From the NCBI GenBank assembly GCA_039181495.1, contig JBCDCP010000001.1, forward strand, positions 365 through 64,364: a stretch of DNA of 64,000 bases. The letters run 5' to 3'. Both the position numbers and the translations under genes were made by a program. Position 1 is the stretch's first letter; every line of letters starts with the position of its first letter. The notes below the pieces were generated by a model. It had not been told where the DNA came from. It saw only the letters and a program-made list of their open reading frames with translations, and made no database searches. Below, in pieces: positions 31,648 through 48,953 of the stretch. This stretch comes from Pseudomonadota bacterium. GTDB lineage: Bacteria > Pseudomonadota > Alphaproteobacteria > Rhizobiales > Tepidamorphaceae.

Positions 31648-31691
31648 GATGGGGGTTCCTCTTGGTCGCGCGAACCGGCTTTATTGATAAG

Positions 31692-31709
31692 TGTCAATCA
31701 AAATTGACA
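31692..31709. promoter_or_regulatory. PpsR/CrtJ-type palindrome TGTCAATCAAAATTGACA in the divergent crtD/crtE intergenic region
   Basis: An exact TGT-N12-ACA with perfect 7-bp arms (TGTCAAT/ATTGACA). It lies 45 nt from the crtD ATG and 116 nt from the crtE ATG. Confidence 0.7.
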
Positions 31710-31824
31710 GTCAGGCAAGACAATTGAACTAGACATTCTGGCTGATGGTCCCTACCCTTTTTGATCAAGCGCACTAACCCGCGCGCATCGCGACGATTGC
31801 CTGGGAGCCGGAGGGAGCGGAGCC

Positions 31825-32694
31825 ATGAAGTCACTGGCACGGATCGAGCAGGCTCTGGATCATGCGCTGGAGCGCGCAACCGGAGAAACCTGTCCGCCGC
31901 AACTGGCAGACGCGGTGCGTTACGCATTGTTCCCCGGTGGTGCGCGGGTCCGGCCACGGCTCTGTCTGGCCGTTGGACTAGCCTGCGGTGACGATGCACC
32001 CGAACTGACCGATGCGGCCTGCGCGGCCGTCGAGATCATGCATTGCGCATCGCTGGTCCATGACGACATGCCTTGCTTCGATGACGCTGAGACGCGACGC
32101 GGGCGCCCCTCAGTGCATAAGACCTTCGGTGAGCCGTTGGCGCTGCTTACCGGCGATGCAATGATCGTTCTCGCATTTGACATTCTTGGCCGTGCTGCAT
32201 GCTCGCATCCTTCGCGGCTGGGCCCGTTGGTCTCCGCATTGTCTGGTGCGGTTGGAATGCCGAACGGCATCACGGCCGGGCAGGCCTGGGAGAGCGAAGA
32301 CAGTCCGCCGCTCGACCTCTATCACCGGGCCAAGACTGGGGCGCTCTTTATCGGCGCATGCCGGCTGGGCGCGATTTCGGCAGGCGGAGATGCTGATGCG
32401 TGGGTCACGCTAGGCGATCGTCTGGGCGCGGCCTATCAAGTTGCCGACGATCTGCGGGATGCCGCTGCCGATGAGGATGAGATCGGCAAGCCGGTTGGCC
32501 AGGATGGTATCCATGACCGGCCCAATGCTGTGGCTGAACTCGGAATTCCGAAAGCGCTGGGCAAACTCGACAGCCTGGTGCGTGGCGCGATTTCCGCCAT
32601 TCCCGAATGCCGCGGAGCGGAGATGCTCGAAGCCCTCATCCGCAGTGAAGCAAAGCGGCTGGTTCCCAACAAGCTTGCAAAGTCGGCGGCCTGA
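31825..32694 (+). CDS. crtE: Geranylgeranyl diphosphate synthase
   Basis: First DDxxD region HCASLVHDDMPCFDDAETRRGRPSVHK and second region YQVADDLRD. Confidence 0.9.
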   Translation: MKSLARIEQALDHALERATGETCPPQLADAVRYALFPGGARVRPRLCLAVGLACGDDAPELTDAACAAVEIMHCASLVHDDMPCFDDAETRRGRPSVHKTFGEPLALLTGDAMIVLAFDILGRAACSHPSRLGPLVSALSGAVGMPNGITAGQAWESEDSPPLDLYHRAKTGALFIGACRLGAISAGGDADAWVTLGDRLGAAYQVADDLRDAAADEDEIGKPVGQDGIHDRPNAVAELGIPKALGKLDSLVRGAISAIPECRGAEMLEALIRSEAKRLVPNKLAKSAA

Positions 32695-32706
32695 TTGGGG
32701 CCGAAC

Positions 32707-33939
32707 ATGTCGGCACACACCGAAAGCAGTCTGGGGAGACCATCGACGGACGCTGACGGAAAAGCCCTCACCACGAGCCACGATACGGGACGATCTGCGG
32801 CAACCGGATGGTTGCGTTCGCGCTGGTGCGCGTTTCGTGACCGCATGCTCCAGGACATCCGGTTTCAGCGTTGGGCTGCGGGATTTCCGCTGACCGCGTG
32901 GCTGGCGCGCAAGCGAACTTCCGAGCTCTTCGATCTCACAGCCGGTTTCGTTTATTCGCAGATCCTTCATGCGATCGTCTCCCTCGACATTCTTCCATTG
33001 ATGTCGAAAGGGCCGATACCATTTGCACGTCTTCTGTCCGAAGTTCAGCTTTCCGAGGATGCCGCGCGCCGGCTGTTTGACGGGGCCGTTGCCTTGCGTC
33101 TGATGGAACGGCGCGGTGAGGAGGCCGGGCACACGCTCTACGGGCTAGGCGATCTGGGCGCTGCATTGCTGGCCAATCCCGGTGTCGGTGCGATGATCCG
33201 GCACCATGCGCTGCTCTATCGTGACCTGACCGACCCCGTTGCGCTGTTGCGCGGCGAAACAGTTGATACGGATGGCCACACTGCGCTGTCGCGATACTGG
33301 GCTTATGTGCGCAACCAGGACGCGGACACGCTACCGGCCGAGCAGGTGTCGGACTACAGCGCGCTGATGGGAATCTCACAGGCGTTCATTGCCGAGGAGA
33401 TTCTGCGCGCCTATCCGATTGGAAGACACGCCCAGGTGCTCGATATCGGTGGCGGTCAGGGCGCGTTCATTCAGGCCGCTGCTGCGGAAACGACACAGAC
33501 CCGGTTCCAGCTGTTTGACCTTCCTGCTGTGGCCGAACGAGCGGCTCAGCGCTTTGCCGAAGCTGGCTTGGCAGAACGTTGCGTTGCCCATGGCGGGGAC
33601 ATGTTCGCAGGCGACTATCCGCCGGGCGCTGATCTCATCTGCCTCATCCGTGTTCTTTACGATCACTCGGATGATGCCATCGTAAAATTGCTCACCGCTA
33701 TTCGCGGTCATATGGCGGCCGACTCGACGCTGCTGGTGGCCGAACCCATGGCCGGCGTGCGCAGCGCCGAACGCATGGGTGACGCCTATTTCGGCATGTA
33801 TTTGTTTGCCATGCATGGCGGCCGGCCAAGGACTCAGGCCGAACTCACATCCTTCCTGAAAGAGGCCGGTTTCTCGACCGTGACGCGCCACTCTGTCCGC
33901 AATCCGATGCTGACGAGTGTGGTGACTGCAAGACCTTAG
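32707..33939 (+). CDS. crtF: Demethylspheroidene / hydroxyneurosporene O-methyltransferase
   Basis: SAM-binding VLDIGGGQGAF, a dimerisation-domain N-terminus, and synteny crtE-crtF-bchC. An alternative TTG start lies at 32695. Confidence 0.88.
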   Translation: MSAHTESSLGRPSTDADGKALTTSHDTGRSAATGWLRSRWCAFRDRMLQDIRFQRWAAGFPLTAWLARKRTSELFDLTAGFVYSQILHAIVSLDILPLMSKGPIPFARLLSEVQLSEDAARRLFDGAVALRLMERRGEEAGHTLYGLGDLGAALLANPGVGAMIRHHALLYRDLTDPVALLRGETVDTDGHTALSRYWAYVRNQDADTLPAEQVSDYSALMGISQAFIAEEILRAYPIGRHAQVLDIGGGQGAFIQAAAAETTQTRFQLFDLPAVAERAAQRFAEAGLAERCVAHGGDMFAGDYPPGADLICLIRVLYDHSDDAIVKLLTAIRGHMAADSTLLVAEPMAGVRSAERMGDAYFGMYLFAMHGGRPRTQAELTSFLKEAGFSTVTRHSVRNPMLTSVVTARP

Positions 33940-33957
33940 GGATTTCACGTCCGTAAG

Positions 33958-34001
33958 TGTTAAGTTTGCTTGACATGTCTTAGCGTCAAATTAGACTGAC
34001 A
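33958..34001 (+). promoter_or_regulatory. Tandem PpsR/CrtJ palindromes 8 bp apart overlapping a sigma70-like bchC promoter (TTGACA-N16-TAGACT)
   Basis: TGTTAAGTTTGCTTGACA (33958-33975) and cGTCAAATTAGACTGACA (33984-34001, one mismatch). The -35 TTGACA is at 33970-33975 and the -10-like TAGACT at 33992-33997. Confidence 0.7.
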
Positions 34002-34258
34002 ATCAGAACAGCCTAGGACTAGCCCGGAGGGGGTCAGGCCAGCTCGGCTGGCACGCGTGGCAGTACCGGTCGCCGATCTCAACACCCTCCGCAGCAACGC
34101 CCTTCAAACCGCGCTGACGATCAGGCGGCGGAAAACACGATCAGGACGGCATTGAAGATCAAGCAATGAACGTTTCGGCAAAGGATCTGCATAGTCTGAC
34201 CGATCAGGCCAGCGCCGATGTGCACGACGGCCCTGATCGGGCCATCGCCCTTGAAGCG

Positions 34259-35200
34259 ATGGCTGTCGTTCTGCAGTCCCCGGAACAGCTTGAAGTACGC
34301 CGACTGTCGCTCACACCGCCCGAGCGCGATGACATAGTCGTCGATATCGCCTTCAGTGGAATTTCGACAGGAACCGAAAGGCTGCTTTGGACGGGGCGCA
34401 TGCCGCAGTTTCCCGGCATGGGCTATCCACTTGTTCCTGGTTATGAATCTGTCGGAACGGTGGTCGCAGCAGGCAGCGATGCTGCACACGCGGTGGGGGA
34501 TCCGGTCTTTGTTCCCGGCGCCCGCTGTTATGGCGATGTCCGGGGGCTTTTCGGTGGTGCGGCATCGAGGGTCGTGCTGGCCTCGGACCGTGCCGTCGCG
34601 CTTGATGGAGTGTCCGGCGAAGAGGGCGTTCTGATCGCATTGGCGGCAACCGCCTATCATGCGCTTTATCGATCAACCGACGCGTCCGATGTGACGCTGC
34701 CAGAGCTGATCGTCGGACATGGCGTACTGGGCCGGCTGGTGGCGCGGCTGGTCGTTGCGCTGGGTGGCGAACCGGTGGTCTGGGAAGCCAACGAACTCCG
34801 TCATGGCGGAGCCCAGGGCTACCGCGTGGTGCTTCCGGAAAACGACCTGCGGACCGACTATCCCGTCATCTGTGATGTCAGCGGCGCAGCCGACATCCTT
34901 GACACGCTGATCGAACGTCTGGGCAAGGGCGGCGAAATCGTCCTCGCCGGCTTCTACGAACAACCGCTGAGCTTCGTGTTTCCGCCCGCCTTCATGCGCG
35001 AGGCGCGAATCCGCATCGCCGCTGAATGGGCGCCGCAGGACCTGGCCGCCGTCAAGGCGCTGATTGCTGAGGGGCGGCTCGATCTAGGGGGGCTCATTAC
35101 CCATCGCAGGCCTGCAAGCGAGGCTGAGGATGCCTATGCAACGGCGTTCTCGGACCCGCAATGCCTGAAGATGATCCTCGATTGGAGGGCATCGTCATGA
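34259..35200 (+). CDS. bchC: Bacteriochlorophyllide a dehydrogenase (3-hydroxyethyl dehydrogenase)
   Basis: [18 protein letters not shown]...[42 protein letters not shown]. The ATG at 34259 gives the usual length of about 313 aa. The ORF-track ATG at 34166 adds 31 atypical residues. Confidence 0.9.
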
Positions 35201-35237
35201 CGACTGCGCTGGATCGCAACTGTTTGAGGGGACAGTC

Positions 35238-36272
35238 ATGAACGCAATTCCACCAAAGCCGAACGGGTCTGGCCCGGGCAAGGGTAACGGCAAGCCGAAC
35301 ATGCGCGATCTATTGCGCGCCGAAGCGGCAATCGACCCCGATGCCGTGCACACCGGCGAAGTCACCAAGGAAACCCAGGTGATCGCCATCTACGGCAAGG
35401 GCGGCATCGGCAAATCGTTCACGCTGTCAAATCTCAGCTACATGATGGCGCAGCAGGGCAAGAAGGTTCTGCTGATCGGGTGCGACCCGAAGTCCGATAC
35501 CACGTCGCTGCTGTTCGGCGGCAAGTCTTGTCCCACAATCATCGAGACGTCGTCGGCCAAAAAAGCCGCTGGTGAAGACGTCGAGATCGGTGACGTCTGC
35601 TTCAAACGCGATGGCGTGTTTGCCATGGAGCTTGGCGGCCCCGAGGTCGGGCGTGGCTGTGGCGGACGCGGCATCATCCATGGTTTCGAGCTGCTCGAAA
35701 AACTCGGCTTCCACGACTGGGATTTCGACTACGTGCTGCTCGACTTCCTCGGCGACGTGGTCTGTGGAGGCTTTGGCCTGCCGATCGCCCGCGACATGTG
35801 CCAGAAGGTGATCGTTGTCGGCTCAAACGACCTGCAGTCGCTCTATGTCGCCAACAATGTCTGCTCAGCGGTCGAGTATTTCCGCAAGCTTGGCGGCAAT
35901 GTCGGCGTGGCCGGTATGGTGGTCAACAAGGATGACGGCACCGGCGAAGCGCAGGCCTTTGCGGAAACCGTCGGTATTCCGGTCCTGTCAGCGATCCCAG
36001 CTGATGAGGATATTCGCCGCAAGAGCGCCAATTACGAGATCATCGGCATGCCCGATGGCGAGTGGGGCGAGCTGTTCGCCCAGCTGGCCACTAATGTGGC
36101 TGTCGCGCCGCCGCTGCACCCTGAGCCGCTTACGCAGGACGGTCTGCTGGGCCTGTTCAAGGACGAGGAGACCGGTGCCAACGAACTGCTGATCCCTGCC
36201 ACCATGGCGGATATGTGCGGCGTCAACCATGTCGAGCGGCCATCGCTCGAAGTCATCTACGATAACGTCTGA
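35238..36272 (+). CDS. bchX: Chlorophyllide a reductase iron protein subunit X
   Basis: NifH-like [41 protein letters not shown] and the CGGFG cluster ligand. Confidence 0.95.
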   Translation: MNAIPPKPNGSGPGKGNGKPNMRDLLRAEAAIDPDAVHTGEVTKETQVIAIYGKGGIGKSFTLSNLSYMMAQQGKKVLLIGCDPKSDTTSLLFGGKSCPTIIETSSAKKAAGEDVEIGDVCFKRDGVFAMELGGPEVGRGCGGRGIIHGFELLEKLGFHDWDFDYVLLDFLGDVVCGGFGLPIARDMCQKVIVVGSNDLQSLYVANNVCSAVEYFRKLGGNVGVAGMVVNKDDGTGEAQAFAETVGIPVLSAIPADEDIRRKSANYEIIGMPDGEWGELFAQLATNVAVAPPLHPEPLTQDGLLGLFKDEETGANELLIPATMADMCGVNHVERPSLEVIYDNV

Positions 36273-36281
36273 GGCACGGCG

Positions 36282-37898
36282 ATGACCGATTATGCCGATG
36301 ATACAATTGACCGTCCGCCGCCGGACAAGACCGAATCGGCGGAAGCGATCTACGATGCCGCCGGTGCAGCAGCCCAGGCAGAACGGGCTCAAGCGCCGAC
36401 CGTTGCGGACACTCCGGATTCCGGCGATGGCGTCGGTTGCCATGCCGGAGCAGCCGCGATGGAGAAAGCAGCGCGGGAAGCCGGCAAGTCCGACGTGCTC
36501 GATCAATATGCCAAGGACTATCCGAAGGGTCCGCACGATCAGCCCCAAAGCATGTGCCCGGCCTTCGGGTCGTTGCGGGTCGGCCTGCGGATGCGGCGAA
36601 CGGCCACCATCCTGTCGGGCTCGGCTTGCTGTGTTTATGGCCTGACTTTCACCTCGCACTTCTATGGCGCGCGGCGAACGGTGGGCTATGTGCCATTCAA
36701 CTCCGAAACGCTGGTCACCGGAAAGCTGTTCGAGGACATCCGGGATGCGGTCCATGAAATCGCCGACCCCGAACTCTATGACGCGATCGTCATCACCAAT
36801 CTCTGCGTTCCGACAGCGTCAGGCGTGCCGCTGCGGCTCTTGCCGAAGGAAATCAATGGCGTTCGCATCATCGGTATCGATGTGCCCGGCTTCGGTGTGC
36901 CGACCCATGCCGAGGCCAAGGACGTACTCGCCGGGGCAATGCTGGCCTATGCCCGTGCCGAGGCCGAGCAGGGACCGGTGACGGCACCGGCGCAAGGCGC
37001 GTCCGACAAACCAACGGTGACGCTGGTGGGCGAAATGTTCCCTGCCGATCCGGTTGGCATTGCCCATCTTCTCGCGCCAATGGGTCTTGCCGCAGGGCCG
37101 GTTGTGCCGACGCGCGAATGGCGCGAACTGTATGCCGCGCTCGACTGTGCGGCCGTCGCCGCGATCCACCCGTTCTACACAGCTTCATTCCGTGAGTTTA
37201 CGGCAGCCGGTCGCCCGATCGTCGGTTCCGCGCCGGTTGGTGTTGACGGTACGGCGAGCTGGCTTGAGGGCATCGGTAAGTCGTGCAACGTGCCAACCAA
37301 GGACATTGAGGCGGCAAAGGCAGCTGCTCTACCGGCCATCAAGGGTGCGCTCGCGGCGATGCCGATTGACGGCCGGATCACGATGTCCGGTTATGAGGGC
37401 TCAGAACTCCTGGTGGCGCGGCTGCTCTGCGAGAGCGGCGCCGATGTCCGCTATGTCGGTACCGCTTGCCCGAAGACACCCTATTCGAAGGCCGATCGGG
37501 AGTGGCTTGAGGCGCGCGGAGTGCACGTTCAGTACCGTGCATCTCTGGAGCAGGATCTGGCGGCCTTCAAGGAATTCAAGCCTGATCTGGCGATCGGTAC
37601 GACACCCATCGTCCAGAAGGCCAAAGAGACCTCCACGCCATCTCTTTACTTCACCAACCTGATTTCTGCCCGTCCTCTGATGGGGCCGGCGGGGGCTGGT
37701 TCTCTGGCCCAGGTGATCAACACCGCAATGGCCAACAAGGCGCGTTTCGACGCGATGACGGCGTTCTTCGAAGGTGTTGGAACCGGCGACAATACCGGCG
37801 TCTGGGCTGAAGCACCGAAGCCAAGGCCGAAAAAGAAGTCGACGGTGTCGCTGATCGGGAAGCGCGAACCCGTGGTTGAGGGGGCCATCGGCACATGA
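36282..37898 (+). CDS. bchY: Chlorophyllide a reductase subunit Y
   Basis: NifD-like, with CPAFGSLRV...[12 protein letters not shown]. It lies between bchX and bchZ. Confidence 0.93.
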
Positions 37899-39355
37899 CC
37901 CTGATCCTCGACCATGATCGGGCCGGTGGATACTGGGGCTCGGTCTACGTCTTCACCGCCATCAAGGGACTGCAGTGCATCATTGATGGACCGGTCGGGT
38001 GTGAAAACCTGCCCGTGACCTCTGTGCTGCACTACACCGATGCCCTGCCGCCGCATGAACTGCCAATTGTCGTGACCGGGCTTGCCGAAGAGGAGCTTGG
38101 CAAGGACGGCACTGAGGAGGCGATGAAGCGGGCGCATGGAACGCTCAACGCTGACGAACCGGCCGTTGTTGTCACTGGGTCGATCGCCGAGATGATCGGC
38201 GGCGGTGTGACGCCGGAGGGAACCAACATCCTACGCTTCCTGCCGCGGACTATCGATGAGGATCAGTGGCAGTCTGCCGATCGGGCGATGCAGTGGCTGT
38301 TCACGGAATTCGCAATGAAGGGCAACAAGTTGCCCAAGCCGCGCAAGAAGGCCGAAGGCGACAAGCCGCGCGTCAACATCATTGGGCCGGCCTACGGCAC
38401 CTTCAACATGCCGTCTGATCTGGCCGAGATCCGGCGGTTGATTGAAGGCGTCGGGTGCGAGATCAACATGGTCTTCCCGCTTGGCAGCCATCTCTCGGAT
38501 GTGCGCCGGCTGGTCGATGCTGACGTCAATGTTTGCCTGTATCGGGAGTTCGGACGCCTGTTGTGCGAAAAGCTCGAGAGGCCTTACCTGCAGGCCCCGA
38601 TCGGCCTTCATTCCACGACCAAGTTTCTGCAGAAGCTGGGCGAGTTGACCGGACTCGATCCGGAGCCGTTCATCGCGTCAGAGAAGCACACCACAATCAA
38701 GCCTATGTGGGATTTGTGGCGCTCGGTGACACAGGATTTCTTTGGTACGGCCAGTTTCGGCATCGTTGCCAACGAAACCTACACCCGCGGCGTCCGGCAT
38801 TTTCTCGAGGACGAACTCGGACTGCCCTGCAATTTCTCGATTTCGCGCTGCGCCGGCAAGAAGACCGACAACGCCGATGTGCGCGAATTGGTGCACAACA
38901 AGACACCATTGGTGCTGTTCGGCTCTTACAACGAGCGCATGTACCTGGCCGAATGCGGTGGCAAGGCGAGCTACATTCCGGCCTCGTTCCCCGGTGCCAT
39001 CATCCGTCGTTCAACCGGCACTCCGTTCATGGGCTATGCCGGCGCCACCTACCTGCTTCAGGAAGTCTGCAATGCGCTGTTCGACGCCTTGTTCCACATC
39101 CTGCCGCTGGCGCCGCAAATGGATGCGGTCGAGGCGACGCCGTCGCGGCTGCATGAAGAGCTGCCCTGGGACAGCGATGCAAAGCGCGCCTTCGATGAAA
39201 TCGTCGAACGCGAGCCGGTACTGGTGCGGATTTCGGCCGCGAAACGCCTGCGTGATGCAACCGAACGCGCAGCCAAGAAGAACGGTGAGCCAAGTGTGAG
39301 CCTGGCGCGGCTTGAAGCCACATCCGGTGTGGTTCGGGAGGCCGAACCCGCATGA
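37895..39355 (+). CDS. bchZ: Chlorophyllide a reductase subunit Z
   Basis: [30 protein letters not shown], an ATGA overlap with bchY, and NifK-like architecture. Confidence 0.93.
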
Positions 39356-39452
39356 CGCTGATCGAAAACGCCATCACCGGGCAACCCCCCGGTTCAAGAG
39401 TTTCCAACCGTGGACCGGCCTTTGCCGCGCCCACCAACAGAAGAGGTGTCCC

Positions 39453-39758
39453 ATGTCCAGCACTATGACAGGGCCCATTGAAGCGCCGCTGCAAGATGTG
39501 GGCGTCGAGGCCAAGGTGGCTGCCAAGGCACCGGACCGGACGTCACGCGTGCACGCCAGCATCCGTCGCGGCGAACGGCGCGAATATCGCTTTGTCTGGG
39601 CGATCGCGTTTCTGTTCTTCCTCGGCGTCGTGATCCTGGCGCGGTTCTTCCCGCGGTCCTGGCGCCCTGACCCGATTGGAACAGGTCAGTACAGAACGGT
39701 TTTCGGTGAGGCGAAGGCCATCACCAACATGACTATTCCCTACGCCTTCATGGGCTGA
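39453..39758 (+). CDS. pufQ: PufQ-like small membrane protein (101 aa)
   Basis: It occupies the position between bchZ and pufB. A basic stretch (RRGERREYR) is followed by one TM segment (FVWAIAFLFFLGVVILARFF) and a short tail, as in PufQ. An AAGAGG SD lies 6 nt before ATG 39453. The ORF-track extension to 39312 overlaps bchZ. Confidence 0.5.
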   Translation: MSSTMTGPIEAPLQDVGVEAKVAAKAPDRTSRVHASIRRGERREYRFVWAIAFLFFLGVVILARFFPRSWRPDPIGTGQYRTVFGEAKAITNMTIPYAFMG

Positions 39759-39770
39759 GGGAACCGTGAT

Positions 39771-39838
39771 CCCCAGGGGCGTGACACTTGCGCCTCTTGG
39801 GGATGCCCGCCACGGGGCGAAACTACCGTGGCATCCCC
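39771..39838 (+). promoter_or_regulatory. Two GC-rich, mutually exclusive hairpins in the pufQ-pufB intercistronic region
   Basis: Hairpin 1: CCCCAGGGGCG (39771-39781) pairs with CGCCTCT-T-GGGG (39791-39802). Hairpin 2: GGGGATGCC..ACGG (39799-39815) pairs with CCGTGGCATCCCC (39826-38). Both use the GGGG at 39799-39802. Confidence 0.45.
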
Positions 39839-39897
39839 GCCGCACGGGATGGCTGCGGTAACTCGGCTTGTTGGCCAAATCAGTCGGAGGATTTTAT

Positions 39898-40119
39898 ATG
39901 GCTGATAATAACCCTTCCTGGACCGGTCTGACGGACCAGGAGGCCGAGGAATTCCATCGGTACTACATCCAGGGAATGATGTTGTTCGTCGCGATTGCGG
40001 TCGTGGCGCACTTCCTGGTCTGGATGTGGCGTCCGTGGATTCCAGCAGAAGGGGGCTATGCGCAGGTCATTGACGGCGCATCCTCGCTGGCAAGTTCCGT
40101 CTTGCCGATGATCGTCTGA
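39898..40119 (+). CDS. pufB: Light-harvesting 1 (B870/B875-type) beta polypeptide with a long C-terminal extension
   Basis: [47 protein letters not shown]..., with the BChl-ligand His in AVVAHFL and Trp at His+9. A GGAGG SD lies 7 nt upstream of ATG 39898. The ORF-track start at 39868 is probably too early. Confidence 0.9.
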
Positions 40120-40132
40120 GGAGACAGGAACC

Positions 40133-40264
40133 ATGCATCGTATCTGGAAAGTCTTCGACCCCAGACGCGTCCTGGTCGCCCAGGGTGTGTTCCTGTTCTC
40201 GCTTGCTGTGATGATCCACTTCGTCCTGCTTTCGACGGAGCGGTTCAACTGGTTCACGGGCTAG
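40133..40264 (+). CDS. pufA: Light-harvesting 1 alpha polypeptide (43 aa; absent from the ORF track)
   Basis: Manual translation gives [43 protein letters not shown]. It has the LH1-alpha signature [16 protein letters not shown], the ligand His in MIHFVLL and Trp at His+11. A GAGGAG SD (40118-40123) lies 9 nt upstream of the ATG, which is 13 nt after the pufB stop. Confidence 0.88.
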
Positions 40265-40531
40265 CCTTTAGAAAAGGCTGTCCCCGCGAGCTACGGCTAT
40301 CAGACGAGTGTGGGGCGTCCGGAGTGGTGTTGCGAATGCGCATTGCCCCGCTGCCCTGCAAGACATCAAAGGTGAAGGACGGCGCTTCGGTACGCCGGAG
40401 ACCGCCCCTCACCTAAAACAATGCCGGCTCCCGGAGGACTCCGGGTGAGGGAGCCGTCCTGGCGCCGGACATCGAGATCAGTTTCCGGAGCCTGTCAGGC
40501 TGAGCCCCTCCTTGCCTGATAACGTTCCGGA

Positions 40532-40565
40532 GGGGGAAGCTTCGGCTTCCCCCTTTTTATTTTTC
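40532..40565 (+). terminator. Rho-independent terminator closing the pufQBA transcript
   Basis: GGGGGAAGC-TTCG-GCTTCCCCC (perfect 9-bp GC-rich stem with a tetraloop), followed by TTTTTATTTTT. Confidence 0.8.
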
Positions 40566-40599
40566 TGCTGGGTGATGATTGAGCCGGAGGTGGGGCGCG

Positions 40600-41196
40600 T
40601 CAGAAATCCAGTTCCGGAAAGCGCTCCGCATAGATCCGAAACCACGGCGTGAAGTCTGCGGGCTTTTCTTTGATCTCCGCGCGCAGATCCATTGGTGCAA
40701 TCCAGCGCACAGCCGCGACCTCCTCGGGGTTGAGCCCAAAGGACAAAGTGTCCTTGTTCACTACGCCGCGGAACATGTGAACCCGTTCATGCTCCCACAG
40801 TCCGTTGCCAACATCGGCGGCGTACTCAATTACCCGTTGTTCGGTGATGTCGGCGGTGACACCGATTTCTTCCGCCATGCGCCGATGCGCCGATGCTTTC
40901 GGTTCCTCGCCCCAATGTGGATGGGTGCAACAGGTGTTCGCCCACATGCCGCCGCAATGGTATTTGTCGTGGGCGCGCTGCTGGATCAGCAACTCGCCTT
41001 GCTCGGAGAACAGAAACACCGATATTGCCAGATGCAGTGTCGGCTTCTCATGGGCCGCCATCTTCTCAATCTTGTAGAATGATCCGTCGGCTGCGATGCC
41101 CGGAATCATGATCGGTTCAACCGCCGATACCGAAGACGCTGACGTCTCGGTCTCTTCAGTTGAATCGGCTTCGGGTTGATCAAACGGGCTATCCAT
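40600..41196 (-). CDS. idi: Isopentenyl-diphosphate delta-isomerase, type 1 (Nudix fold)
   Basis: HLAISVFLFSEQGELLIQQRAHDKYHCGGMWANTCCTHPHWGEE...RRMAEEIG. The ATG at 41196 (MDSPFDQ) overlaps the bchJ stop by 8 nt. The longer ORF-track start would overlap bchJ by 83 nt. Confidence 0.85.
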   Translation of the reverse strand: MDSPFDQPEADSTEETETSASSVSAVEPIMIPGIAADGSFYKIEKMAAHEKPTLHLAISVFLFSEQGELLIQQRAHDKYHCGGMWANTCCTHPHWGEEPKASAHRRMAEEIGVTADITEQRVIEYAADVGNGLWEHERVHMFRGVVNKDTLSFGLNPEEVAAVRWIAPMDLRAEIKEKPADFTPWFRIYAERFPELDF

Positions 41197-41899
41197 GAGG
41201 CTTGTCTTCTGCTGCTGGCGCCAGCTGCCCTGAACGCCATCGTATCTCGAACTCACACGCCGGCGCGCCATGTCCCTGGCAGGCAGTTTCTTTCACCACT
41301 GTAGTGCGCTGAACGAGAACGCGAAACAGGTATTCGAATGTTGCCGCGACATAGCTGCAGGTCGGCCTGGCCTCGGCGGACCGCGCATTCTGAGTCTCGA
41401 CCCCCACAGCGGCTCTCCCATGGTTGCATGAACCGCGGCAATAGGGGCAGTCGGCAATTCTGAAGGTCATACCCGCTCGTTCGCCTTGCCACGAAAAGCT
41501 GCCGCTGCCTGCAAACGTCCAGGCGTGATGTCCGATCGATGACATCAGTATCCGCGCTGCCAGCGGGGCCGGCAGTATCTTCATGAGCCACTGGGCGGGG
41601 CGTGGGATCCGATGGTTTAGCAGATAACGTGCGGTGCGTTGGCCGGCATCACAGTTGACCATGTCGGCGCGTTCATTCCCGAGGAGCCGCCAAAGAGCAT
41701 CTTGCAGCGCCACGACGTCATCTTCAGGCACCATGTCCTGGGGAGGTGATTCAAGGTGGTGCTCGAGCTTCGCGGCCCCGAAAACGGTTCTGACCAAGTC
41801 GATGCCGGTTTCATCCGTTTGGGTTGAAGCCACGGTTTCGACGTTCAGCGCCTCGGCAACACGCAGAATTGCATTGGGGCCGATCCGCGCGATTGCCAT
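41189..41899 (-). CDS. bchJ: Bacteriochlorophyll 4-vinyl reductase-like protein (V4R domain)
   Basis: ARIGPNAILRVAEAL, the MVPEDDVVAL..LW, TARYLLNHRIP and HAWTFAGSGSF strings as remembered for BchJ, and a TAATG junction with bchE. Confidence 0.8.
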   Translation of the reverse strand: MAIARIGPNAILRVAEALNVETVASTQTDETGIDLVRTVFGAAKLEHHLESPPQDMVPEDDVVALQDALWRLLGNERADMVNCDAGQRTARYLLNHRIPRPAQWLMKILPAPLAARILMSSIGHHAWTFAGSGSFSWQGERAGMTFRIADCPYCRGSCNHGRAAVGVETQNARSAEARPTCSYVAATFEYLFRVLVQRTTVVKETACQGHGAPACEFEIRWRSGQLAPAAEDKPHG

Positions 41900-43608
41900 T
41901 ACGCGTGTTGGCGGCCAGCCGGTCCGATCAGCTGAATCCGGCCGGTTTTCTCGACGACGGCCATCTCCTCATCGCTCAACTGTTCGGTGCCGCCACCGCA
42001 CGCCTTGGCTGCTTCGGCTCGTTTGGCCTGTTTGGCGGACTTGATCTGATCCGTGAGCGCGGCCTTGCGCTCGGCGGCCTTGCGCGACTTGTCATGCATT
42101 GCTTCCCAGTCGGCCATCTGAGCCGGCGCGATCTCGCGGCTATCGTCAAAGTGGAAGTCGACGCTCTTCTTTGATTGTGGACCCCAATAACCAACCTTGC
42201 CCAGGTCGTAGAAGGTGCGCTGGAAACCGGCCTTCATGAAAGCCTTGAGGCAACCGAGCAGGTATTTCCGTCGATAGCCGCGACCGCGCCATGGATAATG
42301 GAACAGTGCCTTGATCATGTAGAAGCGCCGGTAGTTGTGCATCACCCGATCGAGCAGGGTGGCCCGGTCCATCGCAGCGGGCTTCATGATCGGCGTAACG
42401 AAGTTGTATTTTTCGAAGTCGAACACTTCGACCTGATCGCGAATCTCCTGATAGAGCGGCGTGAACGGCCACGGGGTGTACATGGTCCAGTTTGCGAGGT
42501 CGGGGTTCCAGTCGCGGGCGAAGCGATAGGTCTCTTCCAGCGTCTCTTCGGTTTCGTTGTCGAGCCCGACGATGAACTGCGCTTCGGTGAAGATGTCGGC
42601 CTCGCGCAACAGCCGGATCGCCTTTTTGTTTTCTTCGACCCTGGTCTCCTTGTTGAACAGGTCGAGCTTCATTTGCGCAGCCGCTTCGGTGCCGAGTGAG
42701 ATGTGCACAAGACCAGCCTTCCGCCACAGCGGCAGGAGATCCTTATCGCGCTGGATGTCGGTGACGCGGGTGTTGATACCCCACTGGACGCGCCGCGGCA
42801 GATCGCGCGCAATCAACTCCTCGCAGAACTCAATGAACTTCTTGCGGTTGATGGTCGGCTCCTCGTCGGCAAGGATGAAGAAGCCTACACCATGGTTCTC
42901 GACCAGATCCTCAATCTCGTCGACGACCTTCTTGGGATCGCGAATGCGGTAATCCCGCCAGAATTTCCACTGGCTGCAGAACGAGCAAGTGAACGGGCAG
43001 CCGCGCGCCATGTTCGGGATTGCAAGCCGCGTGTTGAGTGGAATGTAGATGTAACGTTCCCAGTCAAGGATCGACCAGTCGGGCTTGATCTTCTCGAGAT
43101 CCTTGATCGTCGGTGCGGCTTCATTGGCGATGATCTCGCTGCCGTTGCGATAGGCGATGCCCTTGATTTTGTCGCGATCCTGTTGCCAGCGGCCTTCGGC
43201 GACCGCGTTGCACAGCGCGACAAAGATCTCTTCACCCTCACCGCGCACGATGCAATCGACCTGCGGCGCTTCCGACAGGACTTGCTTATACATGAAAGTG
43301 GCATGTACGCCGCCGAGCACGCGAAGCGCTGATGGGTGTGCTTCCTGCGCCAGCTGCAAAACGCGTTCGGCCTTGTAGATCGACGGTGTGATCGAGGTGA
43401 CGCCAACAAGGTCGGGCTTCAGTTCGGCGATCCGCGCCCGAAGATCGTCATCCTCGACATTCTCTGTCATCGCGTCGATGAAATGCACGTCCGCGTATCC
43501 GGCCGACTTGGCAGCACCGGTCAGATAGGCGACCCAAGCCGGGGGCCAGTTCCCCGCGATCTCGGCGCCGCCGGAATGGTAGTTGGGGTGTACCAAGAGG
43601 ATGCGCAT
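41899..43608 (-). CDS. bchE: Anaerobic Mg-protoporphyrin IX monomethyl ester oxidative cyclase (B12-binding radical SAM)
   Basis: [38 protein letters not shown] (B12-binding domain) and the radical-SAM motif [11 protein letters not shown]. Confidence 0.93.
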
Positions 43609-43631
43609 AGCGGGGTCCTGACGCTAAGGAG

Positions 43632-43649
43632 TGTCAAGGAAAGATTACA
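43632..43649. promoter_or_regulatory. Weakly symmetric TGT-N12-ACA element (TGTCAAGGAAAGATTACA) in the divergent bchE/orf125 intergenic region
   Basis: It matches TGT-N12-ACA, but only the outer triplets are symmetric. It lies 24 nt upstream of the bchE ATG. Confidence 0.35.
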
Positions 43650-43732
43650 CCAATGCCCGTTCTGATTGATTGACCTAGATCACCACGGCCGGTGGTAGCG
43701 ATCTTTCCAATTGGCAGGACCGTATCGCGTGC

Positions 43733-44110
43733 ATGGAAGATCTGCTCAGGGCGGCCTATGCAGCGAATATTCTCATTCTGTTGCCGGTCGTGGTGTCGCT
43801 GTTTCGTGTGCGTTCGATTGAACCGCTGCCGGCATTCGGTCACTGCGGGTCCGCAGATGCGCCGGTCGCCTTTGTGCTGGCGAGCCTCTGGGGTGGAATC
43901 TTAATGTGTTCCGCACTTGGCCTGTTCGCGCCGGTGGCCCTTATCCCGCTACTGATCTTTCAAGTGGTCTACAAGGCTATCTACCTCGCCAGCTTTGTCG
44001 CTCTGGCAGTGCTGCGCGGCAAGCATGACACCGTGCCCATAGGAATGGTCGCCGTCTTCTCGGTCATTGTCACGGTATGGCCACCGCTGATCTGGTTTTC
44101 GTGGGTCTAG
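43733..44110 (+). CDS. Hypothetical 4-TM membrane protein (orf125) embedded in the PGC
   Basis: Plausible codon usage and four hydrophobic segments (ANILILLPVVVSLF, VAFVLASLWGGILMCSALGLF, LIPLLIFQVVYKAIYLASFVALAVL, MVAVFSVIVTVWPPLIWF). I recognise no family. Confidence 0.5.
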   Translation: MEDLLRAAYAANILILLPVVVSLFRVRSIEPLPAFGHCGSADAPVAFVLASLWGGILMCSALGLFAPVALIPLLIFQVVYKAIYLASFVALAVLRGKHDTVPIGMVAVFSVIVTVWPPLIWFSWV

Positions 44111-44155
44111 ACATGATCGATGTCAGAGGGTTGGTCGGACCAGCCTCGTTTCCGT

Positions 44156-44923
44156 TCAGCCAAACTGCAGTTCGGCTGGAAGTGGGTCGCGTCCGCCCCA
44201 TTGGCCTTCAAAGCCCAGAACGCGGAAGCGAGCGTAGAGTTCCTCGCGGAACCAGCCATTGCGGCGTACTTCCTTGATCGCAGCTGAGTGAAACTGGCTG
44301 CGATAGGCAAAATTCTTCATTGCCTGGACGTCGTCCCAGATGGAAAACGTGACCTGCTGAAGCCATGGCACCTCACCAATACCGATCTTGAACAGCATAT
44401 GGGTTTCCTCACGCACCGTGGTCGAGATGTCCGGTGCCCAGCGCCAGAAACTGATGGCATGCTGCGGCTTCACTGTTGCCCGGGTCAGCACCGCCATGGG
44501 GAGGGGCGGGTCGTCGTCGGGCACGATGTCGAACGGCGCATCAGAATCCCAGACCCCTCGGCTCGAGATGGCCTGAATGTAGACCGTCCAGTGCTCAATG
44601 GCGTGATCGCGATAGCGGTCATAAACCGCGCTGTTGCTGATGGCCTGGCGCGCTTGCATAAGGTCGTCCCAGGTGCCCATCAGCGCGTAAACGCCGAAAT
44701 TAGGTATTGGCGTGAAGCCCTCACCAGTGCCTGAGCCGAACATCTTGGCAAAGCCGATGCCGGGCGTCTGGTTGAACGCGGCCCGGGAGAACTGCATCTG
44801 GCTGAACGCCCAAAGCTTGTCGGCGGTGCCACCAAACCGGAAGAACGACAGTGCGATGGCTTGACCTGATGCTATCTCAGGCCTGCCTTGGGCTGTATCT
44901 TCATTGACCGGCGCAAGCATCAT
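44156..44923 (-). CDS. crtA: Spheroidene monooxygenase
   Basis: LSFFRFGGTADKLWAFSQMQF...GIGFAKMFGSGTGEGFTPIPNFGVYALMGTW...LFKIGIGEVPWLQQVTFSIWDD...NGWFREELYARFRV matches my recollection of CrtA. The ATG at 44923 avoids an overlap with hemA. Confidence 0.8.
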   Translation of the reverse strand: MMLAPVNEDTAQGRPEIASGQAIALSFFRFGGTADKLWAFSQMQFSRAAFNQTPGIGFAKMFGSGTGEGFTPIPNFGVYALMGTWDDLMQARQAISNSAVYDRYRDHAIEHWTVYIQAISSRGVWDSDAPFDIVPDDDPPLPMAVLTRATVKPQHAISFWRWAPDISTTVREETHMLFKIGIGEVPWLQQVTFSIWDDVQAMKNFAYRSQFHSAAIKEVRRNGWFREELYARFRVLGFEGQWGGRDPLPAELQFG

Positions 44924-44969
44924 GCTTCTCCGGAATAGAGCACTTGGTTGGCGCGAAAACCGAACGCGA

Positions 44970-46184
44970 TCAGGCGACAGCGCGGGCCAATGCGCATTGC
45001 GACCAGAGTTCGCCGATGGCATCGACCAAGTGTTCGATATCGGCTTCGGTGTGCAACGGTGATGGTGTCAGTCGCAGCCGCTCGGTGCCGCGTGGCACCG
45101 TCGGGTAGTTGATTGGCTGCACATAGATGTTGTGATGGTCGAGCAGGTGATCAGAGATCCACTTGCACTTGACCGGATCGCCAACCATGACCGGAACGAT
45201 GTGGCTCGGATTTGGCATGTGCGGAATGCCGTTTGCATCAAGCCGTGCCCGCAGCTTGGCGACAATCGCCTGATGCGCGCGACGTTCCTCCTGGCTCTCC
45301 TTTAGGTGCCGGATTGAAGCCGCAGCACCTGCGGCCAATGCCGGCGGCAGAGCCGTGGTGAAAATGAACCCCGACGCGAAGCTGCGCACGAAGTCGCACA
45401 TGGCCGCCGAGCCGGTGATGTAGCCACCCATGACCCCGAAGGCCTTGCCCAGCGTGCCTTCGATGAGGCTGACGCGATCCATGAGACCTTCGCGCTCGGC
45501 AATGCCGCCTCCACGCGGGCCATACAGACCGACGGCGTGGACTTCGTCGAGATAGGTGAAGGCGCCATACTTCTCGGCGACATCAAGAATGTCTGCCATG
45601 GGCGAGATATCACCGTCCATGGAGTAGACCGATTCGAACGCCACGACCTTGGGACGACCGGGCTCAATGCCACGCAACTTGGCTTCAAGGTCTGCGACAT
45701 CATTGTGCCGGAACAGCTGCTTCTCGGCGCGGCTGTGGCGGATGCCTTCGATCATCGAGGCGTGGTTTCCGGCGTCTGACAGAATCACGCAGCCCGGGAG
45801 CTTGGCTCCGAGCGTCGAGAGGCTGGCCCAGTTCGAGACATAGCCGGAAGTAAACAGCAGAGCTGATTCCTTGCCGTGAAGGTCGGCCAGCTCACGCTCC
45901 AAAAGTACGTGATAGTGGTTGGTGCCGGAGATATTGCGGGTGCCGCCTGCGCCTGCACCGCAACGTTCGATCGCTTCCTGCATGGCGGCCGTCACCTTGG
46001 AGTGCTGGCCCATGCCGAGATAGTCGTTGGAACACCAGACGGTGACATCGTGGGTGCCGTCACCGGAGTGTCGCGTCGCGCGCGGGAAATCGCCGCGGTG
46101 CCGCTCAAGATCAGCGAACACGCGATAGCGACCTTCTTCGTGAAGGCCGTCCAGCTCGGTCTTAAAGAAGCTCTCGTAATTCAT
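44970..46184 (-). CDS. hemA: 5-aminolevulinate synthase
   Basis: [41 protein letters not shown] and the PLP-lysine region TLGKAFG. Confidence 0.93.
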
Positions 46185-46281
46185 CGTCTTCTCCCCAGTT
46201 CCCCATTCCCTGTCTTCGTGTTTCCCGGGAAAGGGCGGATATCTTGTCGTCCCTCGCCGACTGTCGCCTTTGGCACCTTCT

Positions 46282-47220
46282 TTATTGCCATTCTAATTTT
46301 AGAGCATTCGGTCTGCGATTGTCCCTTGTGGCTACTGCGGACGGGTGTGACACGGAGTCGCCCCGCAGTTGTGTTCGATCGAATCCTGCGGTCACTGGCG
46401 CAGCAGCATGGCTGGTGCCCGATGGTGCCAGCACATAGTCCGCGCCGCGTGCAATTTCGCTTTCATCGCGCGCCCGCAATGCCCAGCGCCACAGCGCTGC
46501 ATCGGGAATCGGCAGCACAAAAAACCAGTGCTCCACGATGGCCAGTGCGAGGAATGTGGCGACCAGCGTGATCCCCGCCTGCACGAAAGGATCGCCGCTG
46601 GCGAGACCAAGATGAATGAGCCAGCCAAGCGCGATGCTCGCCAGCGTGACGACGACCGGAAACAGCGCGTTGATGCGGTCGCGCCGGAAGTAGCTCTTCA
46701 GATAGGCGAGATGCTCGGGCAGGAACTCTTCGGCCAGATTGGGGGCACCGAGAAACACATTTAGCTTTGCCGAAATGCGCATGGCCCAGAGGACGGTGAA
46801 CGTCCACAGTGCGATCTGATTGTCACCCGCCCAGCTCAGCCAAACCAGCATCAGCAGCGTTGTCAGGATCGCCAGCTCGTGATGCAGGATGGTCTCGAAA
46901 GCGGCGCGGAAGCGCGGATTTCCGCTTAGATCGGGAGGGCAGGGTGTGCGCCGGGGGCCGGTCACGTAGCCGAACAGAAAGCTCATCTCGTGCCAGGCCC
47001 AGATGAGCAGACCGCAGCTGAAGCCAGCAAAAGCACCGGCGACCGTGGTGTTGTCGCGAATGGCATCGACACCAAACAGCGCCAGTACAGCGACAATGCT
47101 GGCCAATGCCATGACCACTTCTCGGGCGAAGGGGGACAAGCGCAGCAACAGCAGGATCGCCCCGGTGGAAAACCACCAGGCAAAGATGGCAAAGCCGATC
47201 GCGATCACTGCTGTCTGCAT
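46282..47220 (-). CDS. puhE: Photosynthetic complex assembly protein PuhE
   Basis: A polytopic protein with [29 protein letters not shown] and [18 protein letters not shown]. It lies between acsF and hemA, as in other PGCs. Confidence 0.85.
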
Positions 47221-47251
47221 AGCCTGTTCTTGATCCCTCTTTCGATTATCC

Positions 47252-48349
47252 TCACCAGGCCGGTTGCAAACGGCTGGTGTCGGGGATTTCGTTCTCGATC
47301 ACCGGAATCATGTAGAGCCGGGCAAAGACCACGCCTGCGCGCGCCATCAGCCAGGCCTTCTTGATCCGTGCTCCGAGACTCGTGTCTTCCTCGATTGCGT
47401 TCATCTTCCGGTTCAGCGCTTCGAGTTCCTTCAGTCGGGCCAGAAAGGCGGGGTTGTCGAGATCGATGAGCACCGGAAAGACCTGCTTGGAGATCTCCGA
47501 GGTGATGCGAAACACTTGCATGTCGTAGTCGTCGATATCGACGCCAACCGCGTCGTGGAAGGCCGGGCGGGCGTGGTCGCGGCAGTACATTGTTGCGAAC
47601 ACGGCCAGCAGGAAAAACCGGATCCAAAGCCGGTTGCGGCCCTCGAGCATGTCCGGGTTGGCGCGCATCAGAAGCGAGAATGCTTCGCCGTGGCGGAACT
47701 CGTCATTGCACCACTGCTCGAACCACTTGAAGATCGGATGGAAGCGTTTTTCGGGATGCTTCTCGAAATGCCGGAAGATCGAGATGTAACGGGCATAGCC
47801 GATCTTCTCAGACAGGTAAGTGGCATAGAAGATGAACTTCGGCCGGAAATAAGTGTACTTCTTGGCCTTGGTCAGAAAGCCGAGATTGACCGCAAAATCG
47901 AACTCGCGCAGCGCGTCATTGATGAAGCCGGCATGGCGGGCCTCATCGCGGCTCATCAACGCGAAGAGCTGGCAAATGTCCTTGTTTGTGCCGCGGCGCT
48001 TCATCTCCTTGTAGAGCACGCAGCCGGAGAACTCGGCCGTGAGCGAGCTGACCAGGAAATCGATGAGCTCCTCGCGCAATTCGGTATCGAGAGCGTCGAG
48101 ATCGATCTGGTCCCAGTCGGCATTTTTCTTGAAGTGTCCCTTGTTGGGATCGGACTCCATTTCCGCAATCAGCGCATCCCATTCGGCACGCACCGGTGCG
48201 ACGTCGATCTTGTCGAGCGTGTCGAAATCGGTGGTGTAGAAGCGGGGGTTCAGAAGTGTCGACTTCTGCGCCATCTGCGTGGTGACGTTCTGTTCGCTCA
48301 CCTGGTCCGTGAGCTTCTGAATGTCTTCGGGACGAGCGGGGGCGTTCAT
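47252..48349 (-). CDS. acsF: Aerobic Mg-protoporphyrin IX monomethyl ester oxidative cyclase (di-iron)
   Basis: [36 protein letters not shown] and [11 protein letters not shown] (two E-x-x-H di-iron motifs). Confidence 0.93.
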
Positions 48350-48678
48350 AGTTTCACCTCCTCAGAGAAGCTGAATTCGCACAGTTCCATGAATTCGAAG
48401 TCGCCGGTCATGCGGGTCCACAGACGCTCGGGCCACGTGGCGCGCAGGATGGTGGCACGACGGTCGAATTGCTGGACTTCGCCGTAGGGGACTTCGATAG
48501 CCGATCCATGGACGACCACTTCGTCACCGGGCTCGACAGTTCGACCGCCGGCAAAACGAACATGCGCGTGCAGGCTCTCGAACGTATGAGACACTTCAAC
48601 TGTACAATCGACATCTTCGCTGCTGGCACCAAACAGACGTGCGAACAAGGAAGGCTGGTGCAGGGCTGTATCGCTCAT
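48346..48678 (-). CDS. Conserved PGC-associated hypothetical protein (orf110) translationally coupled to acsF
   Basis: A GGGAGG SD lies 7 nt upstream of ATG 48678, and there is an ATGA stop/start overlap with acsF. The protein is soluble and acidic. A small unnamed ORF occupies the same position upstream of acsF in other PGCs (recollection). Confidence 0.6.
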
Positions 48679-48855
48679 CGGCCTGCCTCCCGGACACGTG
48701 GTGTCGCTGGTATGTCGATGGTCGCTCTCTGCCTGACGGCAGTCTCTGAAGATCGCGGAACTTTGTCTGATGCTCCCATGTCTTCCCCTCCTAAAATCAA
48801 AGAACGTCGTTTGCGTATTTTCGGCGGGCGTCTTGCTGCGTCCTTGATTGGTCTC

Positions 48856-48903
48856 AAAGGCCTGTTCGGCCTTTTGTTGCGTCCGGCAGTTAATGCCGGA
48901 CGC
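48856..48903. other. Two consecutive perfect hairpins in the puhA-orf110 gap
   Basis: AAAGGCC-tgttc-GGCCTTT (48856-48874) and GCGTCCGGCA-gttaa-TGCCGGACGC (48879-48903). There is no U-tract in the puhA (minus) direction, so this is more likely an attenuator or RNA-stability element than a full terminator. Confidence 0.4.
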
Positions 48904-48953
48904 TAACTTCTGCCGGCTTCTGCCGGCCTGTTCTGCGGTCTGTCGTTTCGATA

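Follow-up and report, generated by a model that had tools for sequence, protein, structure and literature searches.

Where the L and M subunits of the photosynthetic reaction centre (RC-L and RC-M) are encoded is the question raised by the 64,000-nucleotide (nt) stretch of contig JBCDCP010000001.1, called the window here. The window comes from a marine bacterium, has a G+C content of 60%, and carries a nearly complete proteobacterial photosynthesis gene cluster, in which the puf operon ends after pufB and pufA, the genes for the beta and alpha polypeptides of light-harvesting complex 1 (LH1). In this lineage the split of the puf operon is real. Very probably, pufL and pufM were relocated together with a fused puhB::puhC gene, and the cluster was kept functional. 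The genes at the end of the operon are the following.

34166-35200, 35238-36272, 36282-37898 and 37895-39355, plus strand: bchC, bchX, bchY and bchZ, NCBIfam equivalogs above cut-offs, the upstream part of the pufBA transcription unit
39453-39758, plus strand: open reading frame (ORF) of 101 amino acids (aa) for a membrane protein at the pufQ position, placed by position and conservation alone
39898-40119, plus strand: pufB, LH1 beta, 73 aa, NF040862 with 84 bits against a cut-off of 61
40133-40264, plus strand: pufA, LH1 alpha, 43 aa, NF040861 with 78 bits against a cut-off of 35
40600-41271, 41189-41899 and 41899-43608, minus strand: idi, bchJ and bchE, NCBIfam equivalogs

The last puf cistron is pufA, with its stop codon TAG at 40262-40264. 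It is followed by the minus-strand gene idi, whose stop codon is at 40600-40602, so the gap is exactly 40265-40599, or 335 nt, with the convergent genes idi-bchJ-bchE on its far side. No gene is called in this gap in the NCBI annotation, and the numbering from PufA (MEM8876263.1) to BchE (MEM8876266) leaves space for idi and bchJ alone. The sole terminator-like site that a pattern scan found in the gap is a stem of 12 pairs (seven of them G-C) with a 4-nt loop at 40529-40556, followed by TTATTTTT. The stem has nine pairs in the consensus fold, and the terminator is invariant in the sister species described below. It is predicted to be a strong intrinsic terminator that ends the bchCXYZ-pufBA transcript about 265-300 nt past pufA. 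An initial annotation of this DNA had described the same layout, with pufA followed by 335 nt of non-coding DNA, a terminator and the convergent genes, and both the coordinates and the terminator scan agree with it. The order bchCXYZ-pufQ-pufB-pufA given there stands for bchCXYZ, pufB and pufA; the label pufQ does not, as the 101-aa ORF matched no family in Pfam (E <= 0.01) or NCBIfam (E <= 0.001). This ORF has a ratio of nonsynonymous to synonymous substitution rates (dN/dS) of 0.18 against the sister species, and about 20 related loci have an ORF with 30-64% identity to it in this position.

The absence of PufL and PufM from the window, also claimed in the initial annotation, was borne out by tblastn. 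Queries of Rhodobacter sphaeroides PufL and PufM had a best E value of 3 over the whole 64 kb. As a positive control, the same queries match pufL and pufM in 73 related loci with 60-74% identity, which validates them. The lineage's own PufL, PufM and PuhB::PuhC proteins gave a best E value of 0.18 against the window. Zero translated matches to remnants of pufL were found in the 335 nt, and zero to remnants of puhB or puhC in the 275 nt at their usual place. With nhmmer and blastn, the 335-nt region was found in this lineage only and was absent from the pufA-pufL spacers of relatives and from the island described below. The expectation that pufL should follow pufA is well founded: among 80 loci retrieved with BchZ from species-representative genomes, 73 extend past pufA, and pufL comes directly after it in all 73. 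For aerobic phototrophs, Zheng et al. 2011 (PMC3176799) give four puf arrangements (pufQBALMC, pufQBALM, pufBALM, and pufLMCBA), and BA adjoins LM in each. At this locus pufBA and pufLM are not adjacent in one operon.

The genes puhB and puhC, reported missing as well, were likewise not found. The relevant features lie on the far side of the convergent genes.

48954-49745, minus strand: puhA, encoding subunit H of the reaction centre (RC-H), retained after lhaA, TIGR01150 with 364 bits
48679-48953, no strand: gap of 275 nt at the usual place of puhB and puhC, the same gap being present in the Tara scaffolds
48346-48678, minus strand: ORF of 110 aa directly upstream of acsF, at the bciE position, no Pfam match, dN/dS 0.037

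Genes bchFNBHLM-lhaA-puhABC form a conserved block (Zheng et al. 2011, PMC3176799), and the gene order puhBC-bciE-acsF-puhE is named in PMC10576062. Here puhA and the 110-aa ORF are separated by the 275 nt only, puhB and puhC do not directly follow puhA, and no match to PuhB or PuhC was found in the window.

The source of the sequence is a metagenome-assembled genome (MAG), and the pufA/idi junction could in principle be a chimeric join or a collapsed deletion in one of its contigs. Against this, the Logan assembly of SRR22824324 contains a contig of 1,619 bp (L001) that is 100% identical to 39081-40699 and thus runs across the junction. The same junction is present in a different species in three separately assembled Tara metagenome samples, and the non-coding region aligns between the species, with conserved blocks. 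The Tara scaffolds were reached through the cluster mates of the window's AcsF, and about 21 kb was read from each.

ERZ28653575 scaffold_27: 131 kb
ERZ28653543 scaffold_63: 111 kb
ERZ28653513 scaffold_39: 113 kb

In all three, the order bchB...lhaA-puhA-orf110-acsF-puhE-hemA-crtA-bchE-bchJ-idi, convergent on pufA-pufB-orf-bchZ, matches the window, and both the pufA/idi junction and the gap after puhA are shared. These scaffolds belong to a sister species, as they have about 85% nt identity to the window, and the junction predates the split of the two because both have it. Misassembly at 40265-40599, the condition under which the initial annotation would have withdrawn its claim, is excluded by five independent assemblies, and an assembly or binning artefact is the least probable of the explanations considered, its chance being negligible.

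The initial annotation offered early functional loss as the other way to explain the locus, with pufLM and puhBC deleted and the cluster either decaying or kept for pigment only. The absence of pufL, pufM, puhB, and puhC from the 64 kb and from the stretches of about 21 kb of the three Tara scaffolds fits loss, as does the relatively high dN/dS of pufB, 0.36. The other genes point the opposite way. Between the window and the Tara species, at a synonymous distance (dS) of about 0.7, dN/dS is 0.098 for puhA, 0.046 for lhaA, 0.106 for puhE, 0.037 for the 110-aa ORF and 0.038 for bchZ, and no internal stop was found in any gene compared. Together with the profile matches, this bears out the description of puhA, the LH1 genes, lhaA and puhE as intact. 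Genes with a sole known role in the RC-LH1 complex are kept by selection, since they have low dN/dS and are intact in two species without pufLM at this place. The substitution pattern indicates that the cluster is still in use and not decaying.

The missing genes were found elsewhere. A search with PufL of the relative L016 (described below) recovered the protein MEM8877411.1 (P0070), named photosynthetic reaction center subunit L [Pseudomonadota bacterium], on a contig of 23,276 bp. Its number is about 1,130-1,150 above those of the window proteins MEM8876248-6282, and the offset fits a later, shorter contig of the same MAG submission. A search with the PuhB::PuhC of the island recovered a protein of 371 aa with both PuhB and PuhC (P0182) from an NCBI MAG named Pseudomonadota bacterium, on a contig that is also 23,276 bp long. 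The two are taken to be one contig, almost certainly in the same MAG as the window. The 90% cluster mate of this PufL (P0180) is on nine Tara scaffolds, which include scaffolds from the same three samples that hold the cluster.

ERZ28653575 scaffold_5: 312 kb
ERZ28653543 scaffold_6: 277 kb
ERZ28653513 scaffold_31: 127 kb

On the left side of this island are dctPQM, a glyoxalase, an AMP-binding enzyme, RidA, a thioesterase and a DUF6356 gene, then a spacer of about 750 nt. The core consists of pufL (277 aa), pufM (419 aa), a terminator and a convergent PuhB::PuhC gene (379 aa), and is followed on the right side by a spacer of about 860 nt, tolC and gltB. The context is the same in every scaffold long enough to show it. 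PufL, PufM, PuhB and PuhC of the island exceed the NCBIfam cut-offs (TIGR01157, 404 bits, and TIGR01115, 509 bits, for pufL and pufM). No traces of pufBA, puhA or the cytochrome subunit gene pufC were found within 10 kb of it. For at least 10 kb in both directions the island is surrounded by ordinary metabolic genes, and it is probably at least 50 kb away from the cluster. Neither integrase, conjugation or phage genes nor tRNA or long repeats were found in its 10-kb flanks. Over pufL and the first part of pufM the G+C content is 0.60, compared with about 0.67 in the flank upstream, and it falls to 0.51 in the puhBC-tolC spacer. With intact PufL and PuhB::PuhC in almost certainly the same MAG, and intact pufL, pufM and puhB::puhC in the same samples as the cluster of the sister species, early functional loss is very improbable and the alternative put forward in the initial annotation is set aside.

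Several further features of the island were observed. The puhB::puhC fusion is at 12610-13749 (minus strand) in the island locus L085, at 15273-16493 (minus strand) in L016 and at 9847-11061 (plus strand) in L096, with lengths of 371-406 aa; it matches both NCBIfam models in the two proteins tested, and a literature search found no described fusion. At its C-terminus PufM has a Pro-, Ala-, Glu- and Thr-rich tail of about 60-100 aa (L085 10893-12152; L016 13196-14359), so it is 419 aa long in L085 and 387 aa in L016, compared with the usual length of about 305-325 aa. Lengths of 396, 407, and 419 aa occur among strains, and PufM of the L096 lineage (326 aa) lacks the tail. An exact direct repeat of 14 nt, CCATGCACCAGGCA, brackets the island (L085 9118-9131 and 14358-14371), with its first copy inside the DUF6356 gene; its chance expectation is about 0.06 by a rough estimate. 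An insertion of about 265 bp resembling a miniature inverted-repeat transposable element (MITE) lies between the promoter with PpsR-type sites and the pufL start codon (L086 about 9710-9975, and the start of L089). Its terminal inverted repeats are GGTTGAGGACTCATATTCTG ... CAGAATATGAGGCCTCAACC. It is absent in L085, L087 and L088, and the PufL protein is identical nonetheless.

The island also contains matches to the operator type predicted in the cluster. Operators of PpsR/CrtJ are of the type TGT-N12-ACA, are often tandem and overlap promoters. A scan for TGTCAAN6TTGACA with up to two mismatches found 10 matches in the window against 1.5 expected, several of them perfect and tandem. They lie upstream of bchI, crtI, crtD/E, bchC (tandem), bchE, bchF/ppaA (tandem) and bchG (tandem), with zero matches in 39356-40599.

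33958-34001, plus strand: predicted tandem PpsR-type palindromes, bchC
21685, 25754, 31692, 43632, 60391/60407 and 63362/63387: further predicted PpsR-type palindromes
61814-63235, plus strand: ppsR, TIGR02040 with 445 bits, its 473-aa form being MEM8876282.1

In the island locus L085 (20.8 kb) there are three matches against 0.34 expected, all of them in its two promoter regions. A tandem pair, spaced as at bchC, is 143-186 nt upstream of pufL, and one site is about 110 nt upstream of puhB::puhC. These predicted PpsR-type sites, TGTAAATTTCACTTGACG, TGACAAGTTAACTTTACA and CGTCAATTCGAATTGACG, are conserved in every island copy covering those regions. The island would have its own promoters overlapped by PpsR-type palindromes, and the ppsR product may repress the cluster and the relocated pufLM/puhBC island alike. 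In that case RC-L and RC-M, RC-H, and LH1 would come from different transcripts, with PpsR as the common repressor that coordinates them. With pufBA closed by a full terminator and a separate promoter predicted for pufLM, the LH1:RC ratio would depend on how each message is transcribed and degraded, through promoter strength and separate mRNA stability, and not on segmental decay of one pufBALM transcript. This account of regulation and stoichiometry is drawn from motifs and gene positions.

The closest cluster found is that of the Tepidamorphaceae MAG L016 (JANQNT010000004.1), with identities of 87% for BchE, 59% for PuhA and 79-80% for PufL. In L016, and also in L014 and L021, the pufA-idi interval contains pufL-pufM, a convergent fused puhB::puhC, and puhA. 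The three relatives share with the present lineage the order bchZ-orf-pufBA ... idi-bchJ-bchE-hemA and the PuhB::PuhC gene convergent on pufM, and the Pro/Ala-rich PufM tail is common to L016 and the island. They differ in that pufLM, puhB::puhC and puhA are all between pufA and idi, whereas here there are 335 non-coding bases and puhA is beside lhaA. Since the relatives have pufBALM convergent on puhB::puhC-puhA-idi, the block probably left as one piece, and excision of pufLM/puhBC from an L016-like ancestor would be the simplest path. At least one further rearrangement would be needed, because puhA is beside lhaA here and beside idi in L016.

A second marine lineage, L096-L098 (e.g., ERZ28653625 scaffold_23), has an ORF of 43 aa, pufL, pufM and puhB::puhC in one direction. 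On the divergent side are a bciE-like ORF, acsF, a blue-copper protein of 161 aa, LH beta (59 aa), LH alpha (48 aa), an ORF of 229 aa and a PucC/LhaA-like gene. As L096-L098 show both, neither the uncoupling of pufBA from pufLM nor the linkage of pufLM with a fused puhBC is unique to the genus.

Five lines of evidence suggest that cluster and island are in the same genome. The gene sets are complementary, with pufLM and puhBC in the island and pufBA, puhA and the bch genes in the cluster. The tetranucleotide correlation between the cluster (L082) and the island (L085) is 0.987, the highest among the pairs tested, and their G+C contents are 65.3% and 64.4%, respectively. Comparing the window's MAG with the Tara species gives 93.5% identity for PufL, which falls among the values for the cluster proteins (mostly 86-97%). 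Divergence between samples runs in parallel, with 99.66% identity for the cluster and 99.14% for the island between samples 575 and 543, and 98.4% and 97.3%, respectively, between 575 and 513. Finally, NCBI binning placed the cluster and PufL contigs in apparently one MAG.

Alternatively, the island could come from another co-occurring organism, and the organism with the cluster would be without RC-L and RC-M. Cluster and island are indeed on separate scaffolds in every assembly, and the NCBI link consists of an accession number and binning only. Such an organism would need to carry pufLM and puhBC while having neither pufBA nor puhA nor bch genes close by, so that its gene set would exactly complement the cluster; it would have to agree with the cluster in composition, interspecies divergence and intersample divergence and to carry the same predicted operator type in its island promoters, and the selection on puhA, lhaA and puhE would lack an explanation. 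This alternative is improbable, although it stands better than loss or artefact.

The following points weigh against relocation within one functional genome. The connection between the cluster and PufL contigs consists of accession proximity, the shared size of 23,276 bp, composition and co-divergence, not of a closed genome. The dN/dS of pufB is above that of the other genes. All three island operators are two mismatches from the extended consensus, and none is a perfect TGT-N12-ACA. The path from an L016-like ancestor needs a second event for the position of puhA. Relocation of pufLM and puhB::puhC with a functional cluster is preferred in spite of these points, and RC-L and RC-M would both be encoded in the genome. 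The initial annotation had presumed that they were encoded elsewhere, possibly with puhB and puhC. The PufL and the fused PuhB::PuhC on a 23,276-bp contig, the island of the sister species and the selection on the cluster genes all agree with this, and the island and the 73/73 comparison support its view of a non-canonical split of the reaction-centre genes from the cluster.

Compared with canonical puf operons, the present cluster has the same bchCXYZ, small ORF and pufBA, an intact LH1, puhA after lhaA, predicted PpsR-type control and the same set of bch and crt genes. It differs in that pufLM adjoins pufBA in neither order and puhB and puhC do not come after puhA. A similar unit is known from Citromicrobium sp. 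JL354, in which an incomplete pufLMC-puhCBA cluster accompanies a complete one as a second copy; it is carried by an integrative conjugative element (ICE) and attributed to horizontal transfer (Zheng et al. 2012, PMC3338782). The mention of this cluster in the initial annotation is accurate, but the Citromicrobium case differs in being an extra copy on an ICE. In both cases the reaction-centre core and puh assembly genes are contiguous and away from the bch and crt genes. The Citromicrobium unit, however, includes pufC and puhA and is ICE-borne, whereas the present island is the only copy seen, has neither pufC nor puhA, has puhB and puhC fused, and is without mobile-element genes, tRNA or long flanking repeats within 10 kb. 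In Chloroflexus-type phototrophs pufLM and pufBA are unlinked and no photosynthesis gene cluster is known. They share with the present lineage the separate loci of antenna and reaction-centre core genes, but they belong to another phylum, and the present lineage has retained a full proteobacterial cluster from which only the reaction-centre core and assembly module is gone. Within the incomplete coverage of the literature search, neither a pufBA/pufLM split in Proteobacteria nor the present arrangement was found described.

The 335-nt region past pufA folds as a row of hairpins with -138.8 kcal/mol (z = -3.2) and consists of the following segments.

40265-40371, plus strand: variable first part with one predicted hairpin, 45% identical to the sister species
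40372-40416, plus strand: conserved hairpin, 91% identical, 17 predicted pairs
40417-40474, plus strand: middle segment, 67% identical
40475-40565, plus strand: conserved long hairpin and intrinsic terminator, 93% identical

Four-fold degenerate sites in the flanking genes, used as baseline, are 62% identical to the sister species; blocks 40372-40416 and 40475-40565, with 91-93%, are therefore under sequence constraint. One compensatory pair was found, in the hairpin 40372-40416, among only three sequences. No Rfam family matched at threshold, and the best hit, BjrC80 with 22 bits against a gathering score of 80, was treated as chance. When the conserved 3' element was compared by RNAduplex with the start regions of 34 genes, pufL, pufM and puhBC were not ranked high, and the energies were unrealistic. 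As a separate observation, the apex of the long hairpin exposes CCCCUCCUU, a motif that is anti-Shine-Dalgarno-like and for which the 5' arm of the terminator (GGAGGGG) is another possible pairing partner.

In Rhodobacter the LH1:RC ratio is set through a single pufBALMX transcript that carries stabilising hairpins after pufA (PMC11354728, citing Klug et al. 1987), and the small RNA PcrX is derived from the 3' untranslated region (3'UTR; PMC11354728, citing Eisenhardt et al. 2018). The present region resembles that system in its stable hairpins right after pufA and in the conserved structured 3' end of the puf transcript. It differs in having a full terminator after the hairpins and no pufLM downstream. 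In our view the 3' element would serve to stabilise and terminate the pufBA transcript; a 3'UTR-derived RNA of the PcrX kind is possible but unsupported. A bolder pair of readings, taken jointly, is only tentative and rather unlikely. In it, pufLM and puhB::puhC would be a self-contained, PpsR-controlled 'reaction-centre cassette' that leaves and re-enters clusters, for which the present island, the second marine lineage (L096-L098) with another layout and the Citromicrobium ICE may be cited, and the RNA of about 190 nt at 40372-40565 would act as a stability element or a regulatory RNA derived from the 3'UTR. If this were true, the RNA would help to match LH1 output to the unlinked reaction-centre genes.

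The arrangement is an organisational variant of a known system and bears mainly on MAG surveys of phototrophs and, as a natural case, on uncoupled expression of LH1 and reaction-centre genes. Surveys count marine aerobic anoxygenic phototrophs by their pufM or pufLM genes and rate the clusters of MAGs by completeness. A cluster contig without pufLM could be scored as degenerate, and a contig with pufLM and only puhB::puhC besides could be scored as an orphan or a binning error. The control of the LH1:RC ratio by one pufBALM transcript appears to be dispensable in this lineage, which would offer a natural test of PpsR control at promoter level alone. A pufLM-puhBC unit here, in the second marine lineage, and on the Citromicrobium ICE supports the idea that the reaction-centre core and its assembly factors travel as a module.

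The rest of the window has the usual content of such a cluster. Positions 1-21000 hold ordinary metabolic genes. A plus-strand run of bchI (21759), bchD, bchO, crtI, crtB and an unassigned ORF follows, with crtC and crtD on the minus strand, and then a polyprenyl diphosphate synthase at the crtE position and a methyltransferase at the crtF position before bchC (34166). The minus-strand genes, listed from the one nearest to pufA, are idi, bchJ, bchE, crtA, hemA, puhE, acsF, the 110-aa ORF, puhA, lhaA, bchM, bchL, bchH, bchB, bchN and bchF. Beyond bchF, the plus strand carries a ppaA-like gene with a B12-binding domain, ppsR and the start of a last gene.

63445-64000, plus strand: start of bchG by reading frame and motif, running off the window end, the cluster continuing past 64000

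This last ORF we take to be bchG from its frame and the motif LKPITWFAPMWAFMCG. Identified in total were bchI, D, O, C, X, Y, Z, J, E, M, L, H, B, N and F together with acsF, and those scanned exceed NCBIfam cut-offs, as do pufB, pufA and puhA (NF040862, NF040861 and TIGR01150, respectively); bchH, bchB, bchN and bchF were named from NCBI names and Pfam context. The gene bchP was not seen in the window and is presumably located past its end. A known plasmid-borne cluster as the origin found no support, as megablast of 30000-50000 against PLSDB gave, among the matches listed, single-gene matches only, with 74-76% identity.

PufB has a C-terminal extension of about 25 aa past the usual ...WRPW end, and an identical PufB protein is encoded on the Logan contig L001. 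PufA has 43 aa here and 46 aa in the sister species. The dN/dS values of pufB and pufA (0.36 and 0.45) are the highest of the cluster, and pufB also has the highest identity at four-fold sites (0.86). The longest ORF of idi overlaps the end of bchJ by 83 nt (41189-41271), and its NCBIfam match begins at residue 67, so the real start is probably further downstream. Genes idi and bchJ are the least conserved relative to the sister species, with 80% and 68% aa identity, respectively. Between bchE and crtA there is a hydrophobic ORF of 125 aa on the plus strand (43733-44110), with no family match and no called gene at that place in the sister species. Both the oxygen-dependent and the oxygen-independent Mg-protoporphyrin monomethyl ester cyclases are present, acsF (47252-48349) and bchE (41899-43608), both strongly constrained by purifying selection (dN/dS of 0.069 and 0.028, respectively), and this pair suggests that pigment may be synthesised over a range of oxygen levels.

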